A stretch of DNA of 23,101 nucleotides from a virus (IMGVR_UViG_2698536506_000012), one strand, 5' to 3'; positions 1-23,101 are shown, counted from the first letter of the stretch. A program made the numbers and translations. Notes: a model not told the origin generated them from the sequence alone.

Positions 1-483
1 ATGACGAAGAAAAAAGCACATAAACCTGGTTCAGCGACCATCGCGCTTAACAAGCGCGCCCGTCACGAATACTTTATCGAAGAAGAGTTCGAAGCGGGAC
101 TTGCCCTGCAAGGCTGGGAAGTTAAATCCCTGCGCGCAGGAAAAGCCAATATCAGCGACAGCTACGTCCTTCTGCGTGACGGAGAGGCATTTCTGTTTGG
201 CGCTAACATCACGCCAATGGCCGTGGCCTCCACGCATGTGGTGTGCGATCCTACCCGTACCCGCAAGTTACTTCTCAACCAGCGCGAACTGGACTCATTG
301 TACGGTCGCGTCAATCGAGAAGGCTATACCGTAGTGGCGCTCTCCCTGTACTGGAAAAATGCCTGGTGCAAAGTGAAAATCGGCGTCGCCAAAGGTAAGA
401 AACAGCACGATAAACGTTCAGATATCAAAGAGCGCGAATGGCAGGTGGATAAAGCACGTATCATGAAAAACGCCCACCGTTAA
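1..483 (+). CDS. smpB: SsrA-binding protein SmpB, complete (160 aa)
   Basis: ATG at 1-3 and stop at 481-483. The translation ([25 protein letters not shown]...[10 protein letters not shown]) matches enterobacterial SmpB as I recall it, and the gene sits immediately upstream of ssrA as in E. coli. Confidence 0.96.
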
Positions 484-697: not shown

Positions 698-1060
698 GGG
701 GCTGATTCTGGATTCGACGGGATTTGCGAAACCCAAGGTGCATGCCGAGGGGCGGTTGGCCTCGTAAAAAGCCGCAAAAAATAGTCGCAAACGACGAAAA
801 CTACGCTTTAGCAGCTTAATAACCTGCTTAGAGCCCTCTCTCCCTAGCCTCCGCTCTTAGGACGGGGATCAAGAGAGGTCAAACCCAAAAGAGATCGCGT
901 GGAAGCCCTGCCTGGGGTTGAAGCGTTAAAACTTAATCAGGCTAGTTTGTTAGTGGCGTGTCCGTCCGCAGCTGGCAAGCGAATGTAAAGACTGACTAAG
1001 CATGTAGTACCGAGGATGTAGGAATTTCGGACGCGGGTTCAACTCCCGCCAGCTCCACCA
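698..1060 (+). ncRNA. ssrA: tmRNA (SsrA, 10Sa RNA), mature 363 nt
   Basis: Starts GGGGCTGATTCTGGATTCGACGGG and ends GGTTCAACTCCCGCCAGCTCCACCA, giving the tRNA-like acceptor/T-arm with encoded CCA. It contains the internal tag reading frame. Confidence 0.95.
787..819 (+). other. tmRNA tag-peptide reading frame (ANDENYALAA, stop)
   Basis: GCA AAC GAC GAA AAC TAC GCT TTA GCA GCT TAA read directly from the sequence; this is the canonical E. coli degradation tag. Confidence 0.9.
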
Positions 1061-1259: not shown

Positions 1260-1823
1260 TTACGTAACGTCAAACGCTCGAACTGAAGCCAAATCCTCCA
1301 GATTATTCAGTTCTTCCTTCATCTCTCGCTGACGGAAATAAATTTCATCATTGCGATCAACCTGCGCATGAAGCATTGCCGTAAGTAGTTCATCCAGTTG
1401 TTGCATTGACAACTTTACCTGCTGATTAACAGCATCACCCCACGTCATGACGTCCCGTGCTGTGTCGGATTTCGATGCCATCACCACCGGATAAAGACGG
1501 GCCATCGAATCCGGTCCCCCATTCCAGCTATGGCCGTTCCATTCAAAAATGAATGGCTGCGCTTCCTGTTCTGTACGCCATGCTTCAATTTCCCGGCGTT
1601 TGGCTGCTTTTGCTGCTTCCAGCATCTCTGACGTGACGGTGAACGGCGTTATTTCTCCCCATCTCCCGCTTTGCAGCTCCTGCCAGACTCGCTGCCCTGT
1701 CTCTGCTGTATCCGTGGCAGTTGCCGTATACGGAACCGGTTCATCCATGCCATCAAACAACACCCCACAGTCAATCGCGCCATTTTCAAGATAACGCGCA
1801 TTTTCGATGCGTTTTATTTCCAT
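1260..1823 (-). CDS. Tail fibre assembly/chaperone protein, DUF4376-like (about 187 aa)
   Basis: ATG at 1823 with AGGTG 5 nt upstream; stop TAA at 1262-1260. The C-terminal half (EMLEAAKAAKRREIEAWRTEQE...WGDAVNQQVKLSMQQLDELLTAMLHAQ) follows the pattern I recall for DUF4376 fibre chaperones, and it lies immediately 3' of a fibre gene. The ORF-track start at 1856 overlaps the upstream gene and is less likely. Confidence 0.7.
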   Translation of the reverse strand: MEIKRIENARYLENGAIDCGVLFDGMDEPVPYTATATDTAETGQRVWQELQSGRWGEITPFTVTSEMLEAAKAAKRREIEAWRTEQEAQPFIFEWNGHSWNGGPDSMARLYPVVMASKSDTARDVMTWGDAVNQQVKLSMQQLDELLTAMLHAQVDRNDEIYFRQREMKEELNNLEDLASVRAFDVT

Positions 1824-1830
1824 AAAACAC

Positions 1831-3255
1831 CTACGCAATACGTATGAACAAACCAATCATGACACTGGCTGACCCGGCAGACCCGAGCCCATCGCCTGAC
1901 AGTGCCCGATACGACCCCGGCATACCACCACCAGAACCCCGCACATATACGGAAACGCTGTCGTTATATCCAACCCCGCTACCGGTCGTGCCGTGACACA
2001 TAAATTCAACCGCGCTCAGGCGTGAACCCGGATAGCTGTAACCGCGTTTTATCCGGCGGTCGGTGTCTGCGTCTCCCTTACCGTTATAAGCCGCCAGTAC
2101 AAGGCTGCCTGCACCGTACCAGCCGTCCGTGGTACCGGGAGCAATACCGGACAGAAGATAGATAATGTCCTGTGAGGTAATCTTCAGATTTTCCCAGCCA
2201 GTCAGATAACCATTACCTGTTGTCCAGTAGCGGTTGTAATAAACATCGCCATTAATACCGTAGAAAATAATGGCCTTTGCTGTATATCGCGGCTCCGGTG
2301 GATTATTGCGTGCCTCAACCCACCGGATGCGGACCATCCCGTTAAACAACACACCTCCGGATATGATTTTACTGTCACCCTCAACAAAATATTCACCCGG
2401 CGTCGCATTCCTTACCCAGGACAGAAAATCATCCTCTGTGTTAAAACGGATACGCTCTGCGGGCAAAAAAATATGCCCAAAACCAAATGCACCGGGTGTC
2501 GCCAGACGGCCTTCAGTCCGGTCACGAATGTCGCTCTGTGGCGTCATTGTGGCTGCGCTTTTCAGTCCAAGATTATCACGGGATTCCTGCTGAGCCTCTT
2601 CACCTTCATCAGCCAGCTCTGATAAACGATTCGCCGTTTTCAGTGTCGCAGATAACGCAGTATCAATATCCTCCCTGACATGCTCTGCATCAGATGCGGC
2701 CTTTTTCGCGGCTTCAGCATCCTGCCTGACCTCTGCGGCGGTATCCTCAACCTGTGAGACCAGAGTTTCGGCCTGTTGTTTACCCTCCGCAACCGCGTCG
2801 GCGTTCTGCTGAACACCTTCCACCAGTTTTTTTACATCTTCTTTTGCCCGGGCGGCAGCGTCTGCATGTTGCCCTGCCTGTCGTTCGCTTTCTGTTGCAG
2901 TTTCCGCGCTCTGCTGCGCCTGCGCCACCATTTCCTCAAATCGTTTGACGACATCCGGCTTCAGGTCACCTTCATCGATGGCTGTCAGAAAATCATTCAG
3001 CGTGCCGGGCTTTGAATCGTGGTAAACCGAAATATCACCGACACAGTATTCCCTTTCAATACACGACCGAAGATAAACTTCATATTTTCCGGTCTGAGCT
3101 TCAAAAGCATATTCTCCTGCCGGACCTGTCACCACTGTAGCCACCGTTCTCATGACCACTGCGGATGTATTCTGTCGGGCTTTCAGAAGAATATGATGAC
3201 CGGACATAGGACGGCCAGCGCCATCAGCAAGAATCCCTGAGATGAGTGTGGACAT
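1831..3255 (-). CDS. Second side tail fibre protein (about 474 aa) with a Stf-like N-terminal anchor domain
   Basis: ATG at 3255; the ORF-track start at 3324 is a TTG. The N-terminus (MSTLISGILADGAGRPMSGHHILLKARQNTS...[12 protein letters not shown]...) aligns by eye with the Stf N-terminus in this window ([31 protein letters not shown]...[12 protein letters not shown]). It continues into a charged, probably coiled region and a distinct Gly/Tyr-rich C-terminal domain. Confidence 0.8.
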   Translation of the reverse strand: MSTLISGILADGAGRPMSGHHILLKARQNTSAVVMRTVATVVTGPAGEYAFEAQTGKYEVYLRSCIEREYCVGDISVYHDSKPGTLNDFLTAIDEGDLKPDVVKRFEEMVAQAQQSAETATESERQAGQHADAAARAKEDVKKLVEGVQQNADAVAEGKQQAETLVSQVEDTAAEVRQDAEAAKKAASDAEHVREDIDTALSATLKTANRLSELADEGEEAQQESRDNLGLKSAATMTPQSDIRDRTEGRLATPGAFGFGHIFLPAERIRFNTEDDFLSWVRNATPGEYFVEGDSKIISGGVLFNGMVRIRWVEARNNPPEPRYTAKAIIFYGINGDVYYNRYWTTGNGYLTGWENLKITSQDIIYLLSGIAPGTTDGWYGAGSLVLAAYNGKGDADTDRRIKRGYSYPGSRLSAVEFMCHGTTGSGVGYNDSVSVYVRGSGGGMPGSYRALSGDGLGSAGSASVMIGLFIRIA

Positions 3256-3295
3256 AAATTTTTCCCCAAAAAAGCCAGCTTTCGCCGGCAATGCT

Positions 3296-3877
3296 TTAAC
3301 TGACAGGTTGCTGCGGCCACTCAATTTCCGGCGCTAAAGATGTATCAACCCGGTTCAACAACACCCGATACTTCTTCCAGGCCGCCAGCAACGAGGTTTC
3401 TTCCTCCGTTGCAATTTCCAGATCTGCAGCATCCTGAAGCGGTGAAATATGCTCACTGGCTACCTGCATCAGGCTGTTTTTTGTTTCTTCCGCCTCCCGG
3501 ATCCGGAACAGTTTTTCTGCTTCCGTATCCTTCACCCAGGCTGTGCCGTTCCACTTCTGATATTCCCCTCCCGGCGATAACCAGGTAACATTTTCCGGTA
3601 ACGGACCAGGTTCAGAAATAAATAATGCATCCCCTGATGCCACGTCATAGACGGTTTTACCCCGATGGTCTTCAACGAGATGCCACGATGCCTCATCACT
3701 GTTGAAAACAGCCACGAAGCCAGCCGGAATATCTGGCGGTGCAATATCGGTACTGTTTGCTGGCAGACCTGTATGAGGTGGAATGTATGCATCACCTTCA
3801 CCAATAAATTCATTGGTTCCGGCCAGCAGATTATAAATTTTTATGGTCCGTGGTAGTTCACTCATTCTGAATGCCAT
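3296..3877 (-). CDS. tfa: Tail fibre assembly protein Tfa (193 aa)
   Basis: [54 protein letters not shown]... closely matches lambda Tfa as I recall it. ATG at 3877 overlaps the stf stop (TAATG). Confidence 0.93.
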
Positions 3878-6201
3878 TATGCAAGCCTCACAATATAGTT
3901 AAATGCGATGTTTTTAACGGTGTTTTCCGCGTTACCCGCAGCGTCAACAGTAATGGTATGTCCGTGTGAACCAATACTGAAAGAATGGGCATGAGCACCG
4001 ATAACAACCGGATGCTGGTGCGCACCAATACCAACTGTATGCGCATGTGCACCGGCACTCACGGCTGTACCGGACAATGAGTGACTGTGGTTGCCCTGGC
4101 TGTCCGTTTTCGATAAATAAGCAATACCCTGTGTGTTGGTTCCTTTAACTGTGGATAAACTTCCTGTAATGGTTGCTGTTCCATACTGACTCCAGCCAGA
4201 ACTGTTCATCCTTAAACCACTTGTGTGGGCATGAGCACCCGCGGCCCCTGTTGAACCGCTCAGACTGTGAGCATGAGCCCCCGTGTTATTCGTCGATTTG
4301 GTGCCGTAATCGAAACTGCCTGTTGTTTTCGTCCCGTAATCAAACGACGATGTGGTTTTCGTCCCCAAATCCGTACCGGATGCACTGGCACTGTGGGTGT
4401 GCGACTTAATTCCATCCTGTTCCTGAGACAATACAGCACGACCGCTGGCGGGTTTCCCCTTGATTGTCCAGCCTCGCATATCAGGAAGCACACCCGATGG
4501 ATACGCGACAGCAAGTTTTGGGTAGGCTGATTTGTCAAACGCCTGCCCCTGCATCAGGACGTAGCCAGACGGAACGATATCTGATGGCCACGGGATCGGC
4601 GCACCTGCCGGAAAGGCCGAATTCTCTCCGGCCCCAAGGTATTCAAGAACATCTGCAACGGAATTTTTTGCCAGAATATCCCTGCCAACCTGAGTCAGTT
4701 CAGTCAGGCTGGCGGCATCATTTTCCGTAAAATACGGTAATTTATTTTTCGCCGTGGAAAGCCCTGCCAGCGCCGTCAGTGTCGCATTCTTCGGTTGTTT
4801 ACCCGCAAGCGCGTTAGTCATGGTGGTAGCAAAATCTGGATCATTCCCGAGCGCTGCGGCCAGTTCATTCAGCGTATTCAGTGCGTCAGGTGACGCGTCG
4901 ATAACATCTGCAATCGCGGCCAGTACAAAATCGGTGTTCGCAATCTGGGTATTGTTTGTTCCCCTGAGCGCGGTTGGTGCTGTTGGCGTTCCGGTCAGTG
5001 CCGGACTGTCCAGTGGGGCTTTTCTGTTCGTTTCATCCATTACCACCTTAACCGCCTTTGGCGTTGCAGCAAGCGTTTCAGACGTGCTGTTGGTTGCACT
5101 GCTGAGCTGCACTATCCCCTTTCTCGTTGTGTCCGCATCCTCAAGCGCGACAGCTGAAGCTATATCTTCTGCACGTTTTGCCGAATTTTCTGCACGTATT
5201 GCCGCCGCTTCTGCCGCACTTTTGCTCTGCGATGCTGATACCGCACTTCCCGCAGCCTCTGTCGCCTTCGTGGATGCCGTTGACGCACTCCCCGCCGCCG
5301 CTGTTTTTGCGTCTGCCGCGGCAGAAGCGCTCCGTTCCGCTGCTGTTTCAGATGACCTGGCATTCGTCTCGGACGTTTTTGCCGCCCTGGCAGAATTTTC
5401 TGCCGCCGTTGCCGAGGAAGCTGCACGACCGGCACTTGATGATGCGTTCGTTTCTGATGATTTTGCTGCCTCTTTTGAGGCCACCGCATCTCGTGCTGAA
5501 GTGGCGGCCTCTGACGCTTTCGTGGTCGCGGTGGAGGCAGACGTGGCGGCTGATTGTTGTGACGCTGCAGCATTCGTTTCTGACGTTTTCGCCGCACCGG
5601 CACTGGTGGCCGCCGCGTTTTTTGAGGACTCTGCGGCTGCGGCACTTTTTTCCGCTTCAGTGGCCTTTGCTGATGCCGCTTCTGCGCCGGAGGACGCTTC
5701 CTGAGCTGACGATGCAGCCTGTCCGGCGGACGTGCTGGCGGCGCGTGCTGAGTCAGTTGCATCAGTCACAAGGGCCGCGACCTGAGCAGCTGATGCACTG
5801 GCATCGCCGGCTGATTTCTTCGCGTCTGCCGTACTCTGTGCCACCACGGACGCGTTACGCGCCACCTCTTCCACCATCAGTTCAAGACGGCGCAGCACCT
5901 CCGGCCGGGCATCATCCTCCGTCATGGCACAGAGAAAATCATTCAGTGTCCCCGGTTGTGAATCTTCATACACGGTGATGGTCCCGGCGTGCGATGGTGG
6001 AAAACCGTCAACCTGCAGGATGACACTGTACTGACCGTACTCCACATCCATGCTGTAACGCCCGGCTTCATCCGGATTCTCTGAGCCCACCGTGTTCACC
6101 ACCACCGTGGTGCTGTTACGTCTGGCTTTCAGCTGAATGGTGCAGTTCTGTACCGGTTTTCCTGTGCCGTCTTTCAGGACTCCTGAAATCTTTACTGCCA
6201 T
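3877..6201 (-). CDS. stf: Side tail fibre protein Stf, full length (774 aa)
   Basis: ATG at 6201; the ORF-track start at 6207 is a GTG two codons upstream. The N-terminus [26 protein letters not shown] matches lambda Stf. It has a long Ala/Ser/Thr-rich shaft and a C-terminal region with repeated GAHAHS, GNHSHS and GSHGHT (HxH) motifs. Confidence 0.93.
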
Positions 6202-6212
6202 ATTCACCCCAC

Positions 6213-12407: not shown

Positions 12408-12737
12408 TCATACCACGACCTGTTCAAAATTTGCGGTTACCGTGACCCACAGCGCCCCCACACTGGACGACCATTTACGGCAGACCACCCGGACAGGTGT
12501 CCAGCCATAAGGCGGTGTCCACTGAAACGCCCTGACCCCACCGTGCCGGGCCAGAAACGCTTCCAGCGCCTGATGCTCCCCTTTACGGACACGGATCGTG
12601 ACACTGTACGTTGGCAACAGAGGATTCAGTCCCGCCGGACGACGCTGTTCATAACCATCACCCAGTTTAACTGTCACCACTTTTGGCTCTGAATCCACCT
12701 TCATATCCGGACGGACTTTCCAGCTAAATATCTCCAT
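12408..12737 (-). CDS. M: Minor tail protein M (109 aa)
   Basis: ATG at 12737 overlaps the H stop (ATGA coupling). MEIFSWKVRPDMKVD...WTPPYGWTPVRVVCRKWSS...FEQVV matches lambda M. Confidence 0.9.
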   Translation of the reverse strand: MEIFSWKVRPDMKVDSEPKVVTVKLGDGYEQRRPAGLNPLLPTYSVTIRVRKGEHQALEAFLARHGGVRAFQWTPPYGWTPVRVVCRKWSSSVGALWVTVTANFEQVVV

Positions 12738-15700
12738 CACCGGTATACTCCGCTTAACTGCCCGCCATCACGGGACTGTTGTTGCATAAAATCTTCTGCA
12801 GCCCTTTTCCCCAGGTTGTAAACCGCCTGCATGACTTCCGGCCCAATCTGTCCGTTCTGGCCATCATTATTGATCTCGATGTTGTACTGCGGCGCAAACA
12901 TCACCATCCCCGAACCACAGGTCGCTGCCACAACACCCAGCTTACCGTCAGCCCCCCTGCGCAAGGGCAGGATAGCCTCAGGCCCCGCTTCACCCATCAC
13001 CCCCGCGCCTTTTGCAAAAGCAAAAAACGTTGGACGGTTAACCACCGTGCCACTGTAGCGACTCAAATCAGCAGACTGATAAACACCACCTTCTGCATTG
13101 GTTTTCACATCACCGAAATCAAACCCCATCACACTGCCAATCCCTTTGACAGCCTTCATCATGGTTGCCTGCGCCAGAATTTTTGCCATATCTGACAGCA
13201 CAGATGAGGTGAAAGATTTGAAATTGAGTTTGCCGGTGGTAACAAAAGTTGCCAGACCATTTCCCATACTACTGAAAGCAGACATAAACATCTGTTCTGC
13301 AGTCCCGGCAGCATTATCCGCGTCGGCAGTAAAATTCATGAACGCGCGTTTTGTACCGTTTTTCCACTCCCCCTGCGCAGCATCCATCTGTTGCCAGTAG
13401 CGGCGATTCTCATTCAGTTTCCGGTTCAGACTGTCTGTCAGCGTCTGTTCAGCCTTCCGGTATGCGTCAGAACCATACGAGCCTTTCTGCTTACTGTCCC
13501 GTTCAAGTTGCTCCAGCTGTTGCTGGTACTGCTGTCGTAGACGCAACTGCGACTGGTACCGCTGCCGTTGCTTATCGCCCATTCCCGCCATGGCAACGTC
13601 CAGATCGTGTTGCTGACGCTGTGCGCGCTCTTCCTCAGCCAGTTGACTGGTCAGCTGAATGGTCTTTTTCTTCAGGTCATTGAGGGCAGTCTGCTTCTGC
13701 AGCTCCTGCTGTTTTGCATCCAGCAGCGTCAGTGCCTGAATCAGCTCATCCTTGTGAGCCAGAACACTTTTTTCATCTGCTGTCAGTTTTTTACCGGCTA
13801 AATCGCTGATACGCTGCTGAAGGGCCAGAAGCTGTTTATGCGCTTCTGTCATCCTTTCAGTAGCCATGCCCGCTGACTGTCTGGCGGCGGCAATCTGTCC
13901 CTCCACCTGCGCCTGTTGCTGGCTGTACTGCAGTAATAACCGGGTGGCCTCATCATTACGGGTGGCAGGCGTTTTTTTCTTAATGGCTTTTTCGTAACGT
14001 TCATTTTCACGCTGTATCGCTGCGTCCCTGACCGCCTGATCGGCGTACTGCATGGCATTAATACGCGCAATTTCACGCTGATGTCGTGCTGCTTCCGTTT
14101 CGTTCATCCGGTTCAGCGCGGCATTTTCAGCATTCCGGCGTTTCTGCTGCTCCTGATAATTTCGCTCAGCCTGCTCTTTTGCATCCTGCAAATCCTGCTG
14201 GCGTTTTCGCTCTTGCAGCGCATCCAGTTGTTGCTGATCGTATTCCCCCGTGGTGGACGCCTTAGTCCACGGAAATTTCTTCGCCCGCTGAATTTTTTCC
14301 TGCAGCGACGCAATCTGCGCATCAAGGGAATCTTCCCGACCAATGTTCATGGCCGCATCCCAGAACTGCTTCCACCAGTCAGACAAGGTTTGCAGCGTAC
14401 TGCCCAGCGCATTGAGGTTATTATCAATATCCGACGTACGTTTACCGGTTTCCTCTGCCAGTGCAGACATGGCTATCCGGGCGGCGTCACTGGTGCGCCC
14501 CTGCTCTCCGAGCACACGGATCTGTTCAAGCTGGGTGGCTGTCAGAAAATGCAGTTCATCATCCAGCGCCTTCGCAGCACTGACCGGATCATCCTTCAGC
14601 CGTTTAAACTGACTGATGGTGTCACTGACAGACTGCCCTACCGAGCGTTCCATCTGTGCGGCAGCTTTCGCCACCATACCAATATCGTTACCGTGAAATG
14701 CACCGCTCCCCACTACCTGCGCCAGTGACCCCGCCATGGCATGTTGCGTGATGCCATTACCGGAAAGATTTTTACTGAGCGCCCACAACTGCCCGGCTGT
14801 CACACCGGCATAGTGTCCGGTGAGCTCAAGCTGCCGGTTAAAGGCTTCGCCTTCTTCCTGCCCCTCCATCCAGGCTTTACCCAGACCAATAACCGCAGCA
14901 GTGATCCCTCCGATAACTCCCCCCACCGCCAGGCCTTTCGGCGTCATTAATTTATCAATCCAGCCGGCACGGTTAGCCAGGGTGATCCCGGAGCCACGAA
15001 GCGCACCGAAATTACCACGCGCCAGTTCACCAATCATGACCCCCAGCTCCCGACGGGCTGCCGCACTTTTCAGTCCCAGCGAATGTGTGGTGTTTCCGGC
15101 TTTCTCCATTTTACGGATGTACACCTCCGCGGCACTGCTGCACCCAAGTTGTGCCGCCTTTGCCCGAAGCAGTTCCGTCGTGGTCATTTTCTGGCGACTT
15201 GTCTGTTCTTTCAGCTGACGAATAAATGCGGTTTTCTGGCGGGTGGCCGTTTCCTCTGCCTGTGTCAGAACGCGGGTTTTCGCTGTCACCTCAGAAATCA
15301 GGGCCAGATAATCCTGCTGAGCAATCCCGCCACTGTTTCTGGCCTGTCGGATCTGCTGCTGAATACGCTGTAACTCCTGCAGCCCCGCACTGGCCTGTTT
15401 TACGCTGTCGATCTGACGATAAAATGCGGCAGCCATCTTATCCTGCGCCGCAGCCAGCGCAGCCGCCTGAACCTGCTCCTCCCGCATCTGACGACTCAGG
15501 GCCTCCATCCGCAGGCGCGCCCTTTCCACATCTTCCGCCAGCGAAACATGCCCCTGCGCATGCTTCACCACGGCCTGAGTCTGTATCACCGTCGCGCTGG
15601 CAGCCTGTTTCTGACTTTCCTCAAACCGTTTCATACGGGCTTCGGCCCGCTCCGCCTCCCTTGCTGTACCATTCAGCAGATTTTTTACACGCGGAAGCTG

Positions 15701-15760
15701 CTCTTTAAAATCGGCGGTATCAATGCTTAAATCAATGACAAGGTCAGCAATCTGGTCCAA
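12737..15760 (-). CDS. H: Tail tape measure protein H (1007 aa)
   Basis: The N-terminus (M)DQIADLVIDLSIDTADFKEQ aligns with the lambda H N-terminus, and the C-terminus ...NNDGQNGQIGPEVMQAVYNLGKRAAEDFMQQQSRDGGQLSGVYR aligns with the lambda H C-terminus. The only in-frame start near the conserved N-terminus is TTG at 15760, with GGAGG about 8 nt upstream. Confidence 0.9.
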   Translation of the reverse strand: MDQIADLVIDLSIDTADFKEQLPRVKNLLNGTAREAERAEARMKRFEESQKQAASATVIQTQAVVKHAQGHVSLAEDVERARLRMEALSRQMREEQVQAAALAAAQDKMAAAFYRQIDSVKQASAGLQELQRIQQQIRQARNSGGIAQQDYLALISEVTAKTRVLTQAEETATRQKTAFIRQLKEQTSRQKMTTTELLRAKAAQLGCSSAAEVYIRKMEKAGNTTHSLGLKSAAARRELGVMIGELARGNFGALRGSGITLANRAGWIDKLMTPKGLAVGGVIGGITAAVIGLGKAWMEGQEEGEAFNRQLELTGHYAGVTAGQLWALSKNLSGNGITQHAMAGSLAQVVGSGAFHGNDIGMVAKAAAQMERSVGQSVSDTISQFKRLKDDPVSAAKALDDELHFLTATQLEQIRVLGEQGRTSDAARIAMSALAEETGKRTSDIDNNLNALGSTLQTLSDWWKQFWDAAMNIGREDSLDAQIASLQEKIQRAKKFPWTKASTTGEYDQQQLDALQERKRQQDLQDAKEQAERNYQEQQKRRNAENAALNRMNETEAARHQREIARINAMQYADQAVRDAAIQRENERYEKAIKKKTPATRNDEATRLLLQYSQQQAQVEGQIAAARQSAGMATERMTEAHKQLLALQQRISDLAGKKLTADEKSVLAHKDELIQALTLLDAKQQELQKQTALNDLKKKTIQLTSQLAEEERAQRQQHDLDVAMAGMGDKQRQRYQSQLRLRQQYQQQLEQLERDSKQKGSYGSDAYRKAEQTLTDSLNRKLNENRRYWQQMDAAQGEWKNGTKRAFMNFTADADNAAGTAEQMFMSAFSSMGNGLATFVTTGKLNFKSFTSSVLSDMAKILAQATMMKAVKGIGSVMGFDFGDVKTNAEGGVYQSADLSRYSGTVVNRPTFFAFAKGAGVMGEAGPEAILPLRRGADGKLGVVAATCGSGMVMFAPQYNIEINNDGQNGQIGPEVMQAVYNLGKRAAEDFMQQQSRDGGQLSGVYR

Positions 15761-16456
15761 ATCTCATTCCTCCCGATATACCTTCCCCCAGATGCATCAG
15801 CTCTTCATCCGTGCGTTCAGGGATCACCCTGTCATCCGTAACCAGACTGAAATCATCCGCCGGAATACGTTCACCGGACACCATCTGAACCATCAGCGAC
15901 TTCAGTGTGGAAATCTGTGCATCCAGCCAGATATCCCCGAAACTCTGCTTCCTGAAGAAATCCCCCCATTCGCCCAGTTCTGACGCTGACATTTCTGATA
16001 ACATCCGCCGCCAGTCTGCCCGCCGGAACTCACGGGCAAGCTGCATCACAAACTGCATCTCCCGCGTCAGGACTTTTCCGGTGTCAGAGGAACCTGTTCA
16101 CCGTTCTGAACATCACCGGTGGAGACCGGCATACCACTCAGGGATAAAACCAGACTGCCCCCGTCGCCAAGCGCGTCATAAGACCAGGTGTTTTTTACAT
16201 CCTCATTCAGCGCATCCACATCCTGTGACGGGTCCGTATTCCACATTGACCGGGAAACCAGCCAGGCGTTGATATCCATCCCCATACGCAGAAATTCAAT
16301 CTGACGTTCAGCCACCGGCATGGCATCATCCAGGGCGTCAAACTCAGCCGTCCGTTTCTGGACAAACGACAGATATTCCACCCGCTGCAGCCCGGACAGT
16401 TCTGTCATAACCACAGACTGATCACCGTAATTAAATGTGTCCTGTTTCAGAAACAT
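15744..16456 (-). CDS. Tail assembly chaperone G-T (fusion made by a programmed -1 frameshift near the end of G)
   Basis: A 104-codon ORF (15744-16058) lies in the -1 frame relative to G and overlaps its 3' end. That frame is open back to a stop at 16100-16098, and the arrangement sits between V and H as in lambda G/GT. Confidence 0.7.
16067..16456 (-). CDS. G: Tail assembly chaperone G (about 129 aa)
   Basis: ATG at 16456 (MFLKQDTFNYGD..., like lambda G MFLK...) with a GGAGAAGG ribosome-binding site; stop TGA at 16069-16067. The ORF-track start at 16477 is a TTG. Confidence 0.85.
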   Translation of the reverse strand: MFLKQDTFNYGDQSVVMTELSGLQRVEYLSFVQKRTAEFDALDDAMPVAERQIEFLRMGMDINAWLVSRSMWNTDPSQDVDALNEDVKNTWSYDALGDGGSLVLSLSGMPVSTGDVQNGEQVPLTPEKS

Positions 16457-16516: not shown

Positions 16517-17257
16517 TTAACCACCATTAACGGTAATACTGGCCACTGCGACCTGTGCGCCACCCGCTGTCATCCCGACAATCGAGGTGCTTCCCGCTTT
16601 CACACCTTTCACCGTGGCCACCATGCCACTCAGTGTAACCGTGGCGATCTCAGGAGAGGATGACGCCACACTCACCGTTTTATCAGATGCATCTTCCGGT
16701 ACTGTGCTGAATGTCAGCGTCGTCGTTGCCCCCACCCTGACACTGGCAGATGCCGGTGCCACCGTCAGACCGGTCACGCTAACAAGCCCGGTGCCTTCCT
16801 CTGCCAGATACGGACGTCCCACACCGCTGATTTTCACAGTGCGGGTCATCACCTCTTTAGAGGTAACAGTTTTCCCCAGCGAGCTCAGCCAGCCACGGAA
16901 AACATCAACAGTGCCGTTGGGATATTTGATACGAAACGCACAGACTTCACCAGAGTCGAACAACTGAACCAGTTTTTTCTGCCCGCTGTCACCCGGACGC
17001 CAGGCCAGCGTCGCCGAAGTATCACCGACGGATTTTTGCCCCTGGGTTGTCGTTTTCCAGTCAGCATTTTCATCATCGAGATAATCGTCATCTTCCGCAT
17101 CTGCAGTCATTTCGCCCGGCTGTAAATCCTTCACCATCGCAAGACGCAGCCAGTCAGTATCTGACAACGGAGCCGCAAAGGCGTCCCCTTTGCCGGTATA
17201 CATCCAGAACGTCGTCCCCGCGCCCTTCGTTTTTTCCAGTGGATTCGGTGTTGGCAT
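16517..17257 (-). CDS. V: Major tail protein V with a C-terminal Ig-like (Big_2-type) domain (246 aa)
   Basis: ATG at 17257 with AAGGAG 6 nt upstream. MPTPNPLEKTKGAGTTFWMY...NGTVDVFRGW matches lambda V. The ORF-track start at 17275 is a TTG. Confidence 0.92.
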   Translation of the reverse strand: MPTPNPLEKTKGAGTTFWMYTGKGDAFAAPLSDTDWLRLAMVKDLQPGEMTADAEDDDYLDDENADWKTTTQGQKSVGDTSATLAWRPGDSGQKKLVQLFDSGEVCAFRIKYPNGTVDVFRGWLSSLGKTVTSKEVMTRTVKISGVGRPYLAEEGTGLVSVTGLTVAPASASVRVGATTTLTFSTVPEDASDKTVSVASSSPEIATVTLSGMVATVKGVKAGSTSIVGMTAGGAQVAVASITVNGG

Positions 17258-20097: not shown

Positions 20098-20128
20098 AAA
20101 AACACAAACGGGCCGCATCACGACCCGT
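20098..20128 (-). terminator. Stem-loop plus U-rich tract at the 3' end of D
   Basis: On the - strand: ACGGGUCG-UGAUG-CGGCCCGU (8-bp stem with one G-U pair; the loop contains the putative D stop TGA) followed by TTGTGTTTTT, upstream of the E ribosome-binding site. Confidence 0.4.
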
Positions 20129-20390
20129 TTTTTNNNNNNNNNNNNNNNNNNNNNNNNNNNNNNNNNNNNNNNNNNNNNNNNNNNNNNNNNNNNNNNNNNN
20201 NNNNNNNNNNNNNNNNNNNNNNNNNNNNNNNNNNNNNNNNNNNNNNNNNNNNNNNNNNNNNNNNNNNNNNNNNNNNNNNNNNNNNNNNNNNNNNAACACT
20301 GATACCACTGGTACCTGTTGCGGTATACACCGGATCGCTTCCGGCAAAAATGCGCCCGTCCGCGCGCTTTTCTGTGGTGGTTTTAATCAT
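20118..20390 (-). CDS. D: Head decoration protein D, interrupted by an assembly gap
   Basis: ATG at 20390 with an AGGAG ribosome-binding site. The N-terminus MIKTTTEKRADGRIFAGSDPVYTATGTSGISV resembles lambda D (...GNSDPAHTATAPGG...), and it sits between C and E. The frame and length across the N-run are unknown, so the stop at 20118 is tentative. Confidence 0.65.
   Translation of the reverse strand: MIKTTTEKRADGRIFAGSDPVYTATGTSGISVXXXXXXXXXXXXXXXXXXXXXXXXXXXXXXXXXXXXXXXXXXXXXXXXXXXXXXKNGS
20134..20294. other. Assembly gap (161 N)
   Basis: A run of N in the sequence, beginning directly after a T6 homopolymer. Confidence 0.99.
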
Positions 20391-20430
20391 TTTCTCAGTC
20401 TCCTGATTTATCTGAATCACGGATCCCCGC

Positions 20431-21990
20431 TTACGGCATACTCATCAGCAGTTCTTCTTCCCCGTTCCCGGCAGTTCCGCCACCGGAAACGGCACTGGCG
20501 GCATGCTGTGCCATGAAGCGCTCAAAAAGTGTTACCTGTGACGGTTGCGATACTGATGGCGCAGCTGCCAGCAGTGTTTTCGCCTGCTCCACTGTCATTC
20601 CCGGNNNNNNNNNNNNNNNNNNNNNNNNNNNNNNNNNNNNNNNNNNNNNNNNNNNNNNNNNNNNNNNNNNNNNNNNNNNNNNNNNNNNNNNNNNNNNNNN
20701 NNNNNNNNNNNNNNNNNNNNNNNNNNNNNNNNNNNNNNNNNNNNNNNNNNNNNNNNNNNNNNNNNNNNNNNNNNNCGGTGCCGCTGCCAGTAACGTTTTC
20801 GCCTGCTCCACCGTCATTCCCGGCTGTTCAGCCAGCGTCCGTGCCAGTTGTTCACGTCCTTTTGCTTCCGGAAGTGCCACAATCTGATCGCCTGTGCTGT
20901 CAGTACCGGCAACCGGTGCTGCCGCCAGTAATGTTTTTGCCTGCTCAACTGACATTCCCTGCTGACCTGCCAGCATCTGCGCCAGTTTTTCGCGTCCTTT
21001 CGCCTCCTGACAATTCAGGATCCCCATCACGCGCTGATTTTCCTGGGACACCGCTTCAGCAACGGTGAGATTTTTTGTTGTCATCGTATTCTCCTGTGTA
21101 ACAGAGTCGTTCAGAGCAGAAACCATTACATCAACGGCATCTGCAGCATTAATCAGTTGATCAGCCAGGCCTGTATCAATGCCTGCCTGACCGTCATAAA
21201 CGGCAGCCTCGGTATTCATCACCACCTCTGAACTCAGCCCCGTATAAAGTGCCACCTTGTCGACAAACATCCGGCGGGCCTCATCAATACGGCGCTGAAA
21301 ATCCGCACGCACACCTGTCGGCAACGCCTGAATACTGTTGCCGTCAACCTTGTGCTGCCCGGAATAAATCAGCGTGATATCCACGCCTTCCTGTGCCAGT
21401 TGTTTCTCGTAACTGGTGTGCGCCATCATCACACCAATCGAACCAATTTTTGCCGTCTGCGTGACCAGCCGACGCGTACAGGCCGCCGCCAGCAACATGG
21501 CGGCTGAACAGGCCATGTCATTACACAGCGCCCACACGGGCTTCTGTTCCCGCAGACGGTAAATCATGTCAGCACAGTCAAACGCCCCGGCAGCCTGACC
21601 GCCCGGGCTGTCGATATCCAGTAAAATACCGCGTACATCCGGGTCGTTCACCGCTGACTTAAGACGGGCAGTCAGACCGTCATAACCGGTCATACCGGAA
21701 TATGGCCGCAGGGTACCCATTTTATGTACCAGCGTGCCGCTCACCGGCAGAATGGCAATCCCATTTTTCACCTGGTAACTCTTTACCGGACGCGGACCAC
21801 CAGTCATATAATCGGTAACCGCCAGCTGCATACCATCGGCATCAAGCTGAACGGCCTGCTGCGGAACGGCAAGGCTGCCCGCCCCAATTTCCTTACCCAG
21901 TGCGCAAAAGAAAACCCGCGCATAGGCGGGTTCCAGTAAAAGCGGCTCATTAAATGCCATCGCGGCAATATGTGATAAATTACAGCGCAT
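20431..21990 (-). CDS. C: Head maturation protease / scaffold C (S49/ClpP-like; Nu3-like scaffold region in its C-terminal part), gap-interrupted
   Basis: ATG at 21990. The N-terminus ...HIAAMAFNEPLLLEPAYARVFFCAL... and ...PVWALCNDMACSAAMLLAAACTRRLVTQTAKIGSIGVMMAH...ITLIYSGQHKVDGN... match lambda C. ...RVMGILNCQEAKGRE... corresponds to the lambda ...RIMGILNCEEAHGRE... region. Confidence 0.9.
   Translation of the reverse strand: MRCNLSHIAAMAFNEPLLLEPAYARVFFCALGKEIGAGSLAVPQQAVQLDADGMQLAVTDYMTGGPRPVKSYQVKNGIAILPVSGTLVHKMGTLRPYSGMTGYDGLTARLKSAVNDPDVRGILLDIDSPGGQAAGAFDCADMIYRLREQKPVWALCNDMACSAAMLLAAACTRRLVTQTAKIGSIGVMMAHTSYEKQLAQEGVDITLIYSGQHKVDGNSIQALPTGVRADFQRRIDEARRMFVDKVALYTGLSSEVVMNTEAAVYDGQAGIDTGLADQLINAADAVDVMVSALNDSVTQENTMTTKNLTVAEAVSQENQRVMGILNCQEAKGREKLAQMLAGQQGMSVEQAKTLLAAAPVAGTDSTGDQIVALPEAKGREQLARTLAEQPGMTVEQAKTLLAAAPXXXXXXXXXXXXXXXXXXXXXXXXXXXXXXXXXXXXXXXXXXXXXXXXXXXXXXXXXPGMTVEQAKTLLAAAPSVSQPSQVTLFERFMAQHAASAVSGGGTAGNGEEELLMSMP
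20560..20965 (-). repeat. Tandem in-frame 138-bp (46-codon) repeats inside C; at least 3 copies spanning the gap
   Basis: The block GCCAGTAA(C/T)GTTTT(T)GCCTGCTC(C/A)AC(C/T)G(T/A)CATTCC recurs starting at 20786 and 20924 (exact 138-bp spacing), with a further copy ending at 20604. The protein motif (Q/P)GM(S/T)VEQAKTLLAAAP occurs three times. Confidence 0.75.
20605..20775. other. Assembly gap (171 N) inside the C repeat region
   Basis: A run of N flanked on both sides by copies of the 138-bp repeat. Confidence 0.99.
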
Positions 21991-23101
21991 CGCCTTTTTC
22001 TCCCGTTGTCTGTCGGATCTGCTGTTGAAACGCGTCCTTTATCCAGACCGGACGCGGAAGACCGGCAGCCTGTCGCTCCTGAGTTTCCCGTAGCTGCTGG
22101 CGGAAAATCTCCTGATAGTCATCCCCCATCAGGGCCAGCTCTTTCTCGTATGTACTCAGGCCGCCTTCAATGCGCATCACCGCTTCCTGCACTTCCTTAA
22201 GGCCATCAATCGCCATACGACCGGCACCAATCCACTCGGCACGGCACCACCCGGAACGAGCCTCCCAGAATGAGAAACGGGATTTCGGCGGACGGATCAC
22301 ACCACGAATAAGGGCTTCCTCCAGCCAGCAGGCAAACATCTGTGACGCCAGGCGACTGGCCACAAATTTTCGTTTTCCCATAAAATACCGCCACGACTCA
22401 TTGGCGGATGCCCTGGCACTGGAATAACTGACCTGTGAATAATCCCGGGAAAGCTGCTCATACGACACACCCAGTCCGGCAGCAATGTAACGTAACAGCG
22501 CCTTTTCCAGTTCAGAAAAACCATTATCCGCATTCTGGGCTGTCTGCAGATTCAGTGAATCTCCCGGGTAAAGATGCGGAATACGGACTCCGCCCAGTTT
22601 TACCGTATTGGTGGCGTAATAACGCGCGTAGCCTTTCATGATGGTGTTCAGGGGATTTTTACCTCCATCTCCCACCCCGGCGATATATTCAAACGCTTTT
22701 TCCGAATCCAGTGTGGATTCAATCGTGGCGGCATACATGGCGCGAACCACCGCCGACTGCAGTTGCGTGGCCTGCAGTGTGTCGAGCATCTTGAGACGCT
22801 CCATTACAGAATAAAACTGGTTGGCCCCGCGGGTCTGCCCGTCTTCCTGTGGCTGAAACACATGGATCATTCCCGGTCGTCCGGAAGGCAGTGTTGCCGT
22901 AATTCGTGTCCATTTACTGACACCGTAGCCGGGCCAGTCATCATCCTGAACATGGTAGGCCAGCGCTTTTCCGTGTCGGTTTATTTCCACCCCGGCACGC
23001 ATAAAACGATCGCCGGTACCATAACCGGGTGTACTGACACGCTTCGGGCTGATGGTTTTGAATTTCGTCCGGAATAATGACGTGGATTCCGCATCCCATA
23101 C
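21980..23101 (-). CDS. B: Portal protein B, C-terminal part (5' end lies beyond the window)
   Basis: The frame stays open from 23002 to the window edge; my hand translation reads ...KFKTISPKRVSTPGYGTGDRFMRAGVEINRHG..., which aligns with lambda B ...FRMVSPKRISNPNNTGDSRNCRAGVQINDSG.... Downstream, ...HVFQPQEDGQTRGANQFYSVMERLKMLDTLQATQLQSAVVRAMYAATIES...GRMAIDGLKEVQEAVM... also matches. Confidence 0.93.
   Translation of the reverse strand, partial: VWDAESTSLFRTKFKTISPKRVSTPGYGTGDRFMRAGVEINRHGKALAYHVQDDDWPGYGVSKWTRITATLPSGRPGMIHVFQPQEDGQTRGANQFYSVMERLKMLDTLQATQLQSAVVRAMYAATIESTLDSEKAFEYIAGVGDGGKNPLNTIMKGYARYYATNTVKLGGVRIPHLYPGDSLNLQTAQNADNGFSELEKALLRYIAAGLGVSYEQLSRDYSQVSYSSARASANESWRYFMGKRKFVASRLASQMFACWLEEALIRGVIRPPKSRFSFWEARSGWCRAEWIGAGRMAIDGLKEVQEAVMRIEGGLSTYEKELALMGDDYQEIFRQQLRETQERQAAGLPRPVWIKDAFQQQIRQTTGEKGDAL

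Follow-up and report, generated by a model that had tools for sequence, protein, structure and literature searches.

The long open reading frame at positions 12737..15760 (minus strand) of this viral DNA raises three connected questions, namely where a tape measure protein that exceeds its lambda counterpart carries the additional residues, whether its translation begins at TTG, and whether the phage would have a longer tail than lambda. The window, i.e., the whole stretch of 23,101 nucleotides that was analyzed, is a lambda-like prophage that adjoins ssrA and smpB in E. coli. Identity to the bovine E. coli strain C5 covers window positions 1-20100, and positions 20102-23101 are out of register relative to that genome. 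As the earlier note had read it, the open reading frame (hereafter H, the tail tape measure gene and lambda H homolog) consists of 1007 codons and a stop codon with TTG as the start, which is the result given by the ORF list, translation, Pfam, BLASTP, and RefSeq. The product of H is the tail length tape measure protein of an E. coli prophage that is lambda-like and integrated beside ssrA. It is highly probable that this protein is a long-form lambda-like tape measure with a TTG start, one extra N-proximal block, and a predicted longer tail.

The domain content, sequence similarity, and gene position of H all point to this identity. Pfam searches identify TMP_2 at residues 217-415 (14516..15112, minus strand; E 4.5e-47; 160.9 bits against a gathering cut-off of 30.2), which aligns with lambda H 54-256, and Tape_meas_lam_C at residues 797-871 (13148..13372, minus strand; E 6.4e-22; 77.8 bits against a cut-off of 23). 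TMP_4 is also present at residues 602-682 (E 4.4e-17). The BLASTP alignment between H and lambda H (4e-47) shows 25% identity between residues 281-1004 and lambda 113-850 and 43% identity between residues 2-41 and lambda 3-42. Both termini thus align with lambda H, as had been proposed. A hydrophobic Gly-rich stretch is found at about residues 281-305, inside TMP_2, and its lambda counterpart (gpH 116-140) is the favored membrane-spanning prediction (PMC12617516). Lambda gpH is cleaved C-terminally to gpH* during assembly (PMC12617516), and the alignment indicates that a Gly-rich C-terminal region is present in the window H. In the RefSeq annotation of the identical C5 locus, the G/T chaperone pair precedes H and the tip genes M-L-K-I-J follow it. 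Each of the window genes Z, U, V, G, T, M, and L is a homolog of the lambda gene of that name (T is 37% identical), and the neighboring tail genes are all intact. G, a tail assembly chaperone according to RefSeq annotation and homology, occupies 16067..16456 (minus strand), and the T reading frame, which is the -1 frame part of the G-T chaperone, occupies 15744..16058 (minus strand). The likely slip site for this -1 shift from G to T is G GAA AAG at 16079-16073 (minus strand), and the slip motif CCGGAAAAGTCCTGA was found in all 61 of the 61 related loci. Judged from sequence, the two Pfam domains above threshold and the position of the gene place H among the lambda-type tape measures. A species-diversity scan of genome contigs returned four loci only, all from E. 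coli or Shigella.

The net length difference between the window H and lambda H is +154 aa, and the 853 aa that the earlier note had given for lambda H is correct (NC_001416 10542..13103). The extra length was located by using Pfam domains as anchors in the two proteins. TMP_2 starts at residue 217 in the window H and residue 54 in lambda H, corresponding to an offset of +163 aa. Tape_meas_lam_C starts at residues 797 and 627, respectively, such that the cumulative offset is +170 aa and only +7 aa are added between the two domains. The segment after Tape_meas_lam_C has 136 aa in the window H and 152 aa in lambda H (-16 aa). Because the anchor offsets are +163, +7, and -16, the net +154 aa is essentially one N-proximal block, located between the conserved N-terminal motif and TMP_2 (residues 42-216; 15113..15637, minus strand). 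BLASTP and a three-way MAFFT alignment agree with the placement by Pfam anchors. The extra block has approximately 165-175 residues, and outside it H follows lambda H in a roughly collinear manner. Where the extra residues lie is the one point on which the earlier reading, which placed them internally in the Gln/Arg/Glu-rich coiled region, is corrected. The compositional part of that description is fair, as the block is rich in Gln, Arg, Glu, and Ala and predicted to be helical, but the block is not in the central coiled region of lambda H. When the alignment with lambda H that the earlier note had suggested is made, both ends align and the insertion is a single N-proximal block (about residues 42-216) rather than being spread centrally.

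The composition of H is consistent with a helical protein, and the block contains no Pro, 3% Gly, 32% Gln, Arg, and Glu combined, and 18% Ala. A single-sequence AlphaFold model of residues 2-320 is almost wholly helical with a mean pLDDT of 60, which is low confidence. In this model, a helix extends across about residues 15-204 with one short break, and the pLDDT is 72-94 between residues 110 and 180. The block is thus predicted, with low confidence, to form a near-continuous helix. Homologous segments are found in the tape measures of cdtI and mEp460 (72-73%), Fels-1, Gifsy-1, and Gifsy-2 (57-63%), and phi80, mEp213, and mEp043 (47-49%). The dN/dS of the block is 0.10-0.18, indicating purifying selection as in the rest of H. 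Internal duplication was considered as a source of the extra length and rejected, given that neither the block, searched by BLASTP for matches elsewhere in H, nor a self-comparison of H produced a significant hit (best E of 0.46).

Upstream of the conserved N-terminal motif, the H frame reads, in order, TGA (15764..15766, minus strand), GAT, and TTG (15758..15760, minus strand). The TGA closes the H frame two codons upstream of TTG; the earlier description of TTG as standing right after a stop is correct in that the stop is in frame, but a GAT codon intervenes. The Shine-Dalgarno sequence GGAGG is read directly at 15769..15773 (minus strand), 8 nt upstream of TTG as had been noted, and doubles as codons for Gly-Gly near the C-terminus of T. 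T does overlap the start of H (by 17 nt), but the T stop TGA (15746-15744) is inside H and not on TTG as had been stated. The codon homologous to this TTG is ATG in the H genes of lambda, phi80, Gifsy-1, mEp213, mEp460, and Ayreon, and the GGAGG with an 8-nt spacer is common to these phages and the allele of E. coli 52F4 (WP_473258116.1). Protein sequencing has established the N-terminus of lambda gpH (Walker et al., as cited in PMC12617516), which anchors the homologous start position. IMG/VR and GTDB genomes supplied 58 related loci, of which 31 have ATG and 27 have TTG as the homologous start codon. The TTG loci form two allele groups, each with an in-frame stop two codons upstream. The window-type allele reads ...AATGAGAT TTG GAC..., and the 52F4-type allele reads ...AATAAGAA TTG AGC.... 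Across the whole gene, the two groups differ by a dS of about 0.96 and a dN of about 0.10 (dN/dS 0.10); therefore, TTG has been retained over substantial divergence in intact and constrained genes. In the overlapping T frame, the ATG/TTG difference in H corresponds to Tyr/Phe (TAT/TTT). The other tail genes that were checked (Z, U, V, G, T, and M) all have ATG starts. Two other candidates for the start of H were rejected. The first, an ATG at 15767 located 1 nt past GGAGG, belongs to the T frame and opens an 8-codon stretch to the T stop; it is a Met within T. The next in-frame ATG, at codon 43, would cost the conserved N-terminal motif. The proposal that H starts at TTG is upheld by the positional homology to the ATG of the relatives, the conservation in two diverged alleles, and the agreement of RefSeq, where PGAP picks TTG in both allele groups. 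Translation of H very likely starts at TTG 15760, and GGAGG, lying inside the end of the overlapping T frame, would direct initiation there.

Two alternative readings of these observations concern the integrity of the gene. The long open reading frame could have resulted from a sequencing or assembly artifact that joined H to extra sequence. Nothing was found in favor of this reading, which is already refuted by matches in C5 and other complete genomes, the RefSeq annotation, and the IMG/VR contigs, and has practically no probability left. The chromosome of C5 contains, at 100% identity, a 3164-bp stretch that spans H together with the region upstream, and the same stretch is found at 99% identity or higher in 16 independent complete E. 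coli genomes. RefSeq/PGAP annotates the C5 copy as one CDS with the same ends and the same start (WP_061351885.1, "phage tail tape measure protein"), and further IMG/VR contigs carry window-type (99-100% identical) H N-terminal regions. Moreover, isolated phages have homologs of 1010-1086 aa, and H is flanked by T and M as in lambda, each with the customary short overlap. The frameshift or fusion with a neighboring frame that the earlier note had allowed for is not seen. The other reading is that TTG represents an ATG-to-TTG mutation that silences H, the prophage being in decay and the gene recently dead. This reading can draw on the higher frequency of ATG among the relatives (31 of the 58 loci) and on the annotation of a related copy in strain RM8082 as frameshifted. 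In addition, an 80-90% identical H homolog occurs in about 1,830 further E. coli genomes, i.e., approximately 1,800 genomes with this class compared to about 20 with the TTG alleles. However, TTG is kept across a dS of about 0.96 while the flanking codons vary (GAT/GAA upstream and GAC/AGC downstream), the open reading frames of 1007-1010 codons are intact with a dN/dS of about 0.1 in every segment, the strong GGAGG is preserved at the canonical 8-nt spacing, and the adjoining tail genes have no lesions. TTG is also a standard and accepted start codon in bacteria. A silenced H is thus very unlikely, and an intact gene that starts at TTG is the preferred reading.

The control of tail length by the tape measure is established (Katsura, 1987, cited in PMC10721106 and PMC12617516; PMC1796659), and the proportionality between the two is well established across siphophages (PMC1796659; Katsura, 1987). 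The lambda tail comprises 32 gpV rings, and the rise per ring is about 42 Å (PMC10721106). The window V has 246 aa, the same length as lambda V; because the two are 57% identical, a similar ring rise is a fair assumption. Proportional scaling and an increment of 1.5 Å per extra helical residue lead to the same computed tube, which has about 38 gpV rings and measures about 158-159 nm, compared to 32 rings and 134 nm in lambda. Polymerization of the tube around the extended tape measure would stop at the end of the latter, i.e., at about 38 rings or ~158 nm. It is a reasonable inference that the tail of this phage is longer than that of lambda, with about 38 rings. Published tail lengths were sought for mEp460, Tritos, phi458, phi80/Lula, and lambdoid phages, but these searches yielded no usable number; the only figure was that of Ayreon, for which a genome announcement gives tails of "±120 nm" as an approximate and uncalibrated value (PMC5764929). 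Taken roughly, this value is shorter than the lambda tail and does not fit the expectation for a 1021-aa tape measure, but it was given little weight because it is approximate.

The Ayreon value also supports the alternative in which the N-proximal block has no ruler function, as the tape measure of this phage has the same block. In this case, the block may fold back, bind the G/GT chaperones, or sit in the neck or terminator, and the tail would be no longer than that of lambda. It also fits this alternative that the extra residues form a discrete module beside the conserved N-terminal motif instead of enlarging the central region. On the other hand, the lack of Pro, the low Gly content, the coiled-coil-like composition, and the single long predicted helix give the block the look of a ruler segment, and the well-established proportionality between tape measure and tail length (Katsura, 1987, in later citations; PMC1796659) and the uncalibrated nature of the Ayreon figure argue in the same direction. 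A block that does not measure the tail is therefore considered unlikely. A related possibility, which is rated as quite unlikely, is that the block is a discrete, exchangeable module that divides long-form (cdtI, Gifsy, and phi80) from short-form (lambda) tape measures and, in line with the rough Ayreon value, has a role other than that of a ruler, such as chaperone docking or a function at the DNA end or neck, with the weak TTG tuning the dosage of H. The reading in which the block extends the ruler is preferred to both.

Since H and its TTG start are already annotated in RefSeq, nothing new is added in this respect. Long-form tape measures are common in lambdoid phages, and the locus has little importance beyond correct annotation. 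Its one useful aspect is that a single N-proximal block, predicted to be helical, accounts for the length gap to lambda. Therefore, lambda and the phages of the cdtI/phi80 type provide a tidy natural pair for the question of an N-terminal ruler.

In comparison with lambda gpH, the window H shares its place in the gene order V-G-T-H-M-L-K-I-J, the TMP_2 and Tape_meas_lam_C domains, the N-terminal DLVxDLSxD motif, and the C-terminal INNDGxNGQIGP...RDGG end. The GGAGG with its 8-nt spacer and the overlap with T are also the same. The two differ in that the identity is only ~25% over the aligned part, 163 more residues precede TMP_2 in the window H, TMP_4 is detected in the window H only, the window H has a shorter Gly-rich C-terminal region, and the start is TTG in the window and ATG in lambda. 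Among known tape measures, the lengths are 853 aa in lambda, 1007 aa in the window, 1010 aa in the 52F4 allele, 1021 aa in mEp460 and Ayreon, 1031 aa in Gifsy-1, 1045 aa in phi80, and 1086 aa in mEp213. A length of 1007-1086 aa is usual in many lambdoid phages and lambda is the short one among the relatives compared; for this reason, framing the window H as a departure from lambda is misleading. H belongs to a long-form class together with cdtI, mEp460, Ayreon, Gifsy-1, and phi80. At about 81% nucleotide identity, mEp460, cdtI, Ayreon, Tritos, and phi458 are the isolated phages closest to it. The tape measures of mEp460, cdtI, Ayreon, and Tritos (1021 aa) share the domain layout of the window H, including the N-proximal block, as well as the G-T slip motif, and that of mEp460 has 82% amino-acid identity to the window H. 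However, these homologs start with ATG, exceed the window H by 14 aa, to which an 11-aa indel near residue 53 contributes, and have first ~80 codons that are too diverged for megablast. More distant overall are phi80, mEp213, Gifsy-1, and Fels-1, which belong to the same long-form lambda family and have an N-proximal segment 47-63% identical to the block, but differ in their ATG start and in length. Finally, the 52F4 allele shares with the window H the TTG, the GGAGG 8 nt upstream, the in-frame stop two codons upstream, and the domain coordinates, whereas the two alleles are separated by the dS and dN given above and differ in the second codon, which is AGC (Ser) in 52F4 and GAC (Asp) in the window.

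The genes for the tail assembly chaperones G (16067-16456, minus strand) and T (frame 15744-16058, minus strand) lie upstream of the tape measure gene. The -1 frame at the end of G is open only from position 16097 onward, and the sole slip-prone motif ahead of the G stop in this open frame is G GAA AAG. On sequence grounds, this heptamer is a putative programmed -1 slip site (about 16079-16073, within 16067-16097, minus strand), and the G-T frameshift appears to occur there. All 61 related loci contain the motif CCGGAAAAGTCCTGA. In RefSeq, T is annotated as its own CDS with an ATG start and no G-T fusion. A T protein identical to that of the window (WP_001161001.1) is encoded by a second prophage of E. 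coli RM8082 (locus L069; NZ_CP043825, 1450238-1453269), whose tape measure gene carries the annotation of a frameshifted pseudogene.

Among phages with similar long-form tape measures, Ayreon (locus L067) has one of 1021 aa. Its tails, at only about 120 nm according to the genome announcement (PMC5764929), are shorter than those of lambda. This value, which is probably a rough measurement, was the sole tail-length figure for the clade found in the literature.

Positions 1-20100 are nearly identical to E. coli C5, whereas register with that chromosome is lost at 20102-23101, a region that includes the portal, protease, and decoration-protein genes. An indel in the head genes could account for this loss, as could a mosaic junction there. 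At the opposite end, two consecutive side-tail-fibre modules (1260-6207, minus strand) lie on the downstream side of J and lom. Two proteins here carry the RefSeq annotation "prophage tail fiber N-terminal domain"; after one of them comes a tail fibre assembly protein, and after the other a DUF4376 protein. Just past the tail-fibre end of the prophage are smpB (1-483, plus strand) and the tmRNA gene ssrA (698-1060, plus strand; tag ANDENYALAA), and this placement suggests that the prophage integrated at ssrA or beside it.

Compared with lambda, the G-T slip site appears to differ, with G GAA AAG in place of G GGA AAG. The major tail protein V is 57% identical to its lambda counterpart over the whole protein, and its C-terminal third (16517-16800, minus strand) reads like an Ig-like decoration domain of the Big_2 type, similar to that in lambda gpV.
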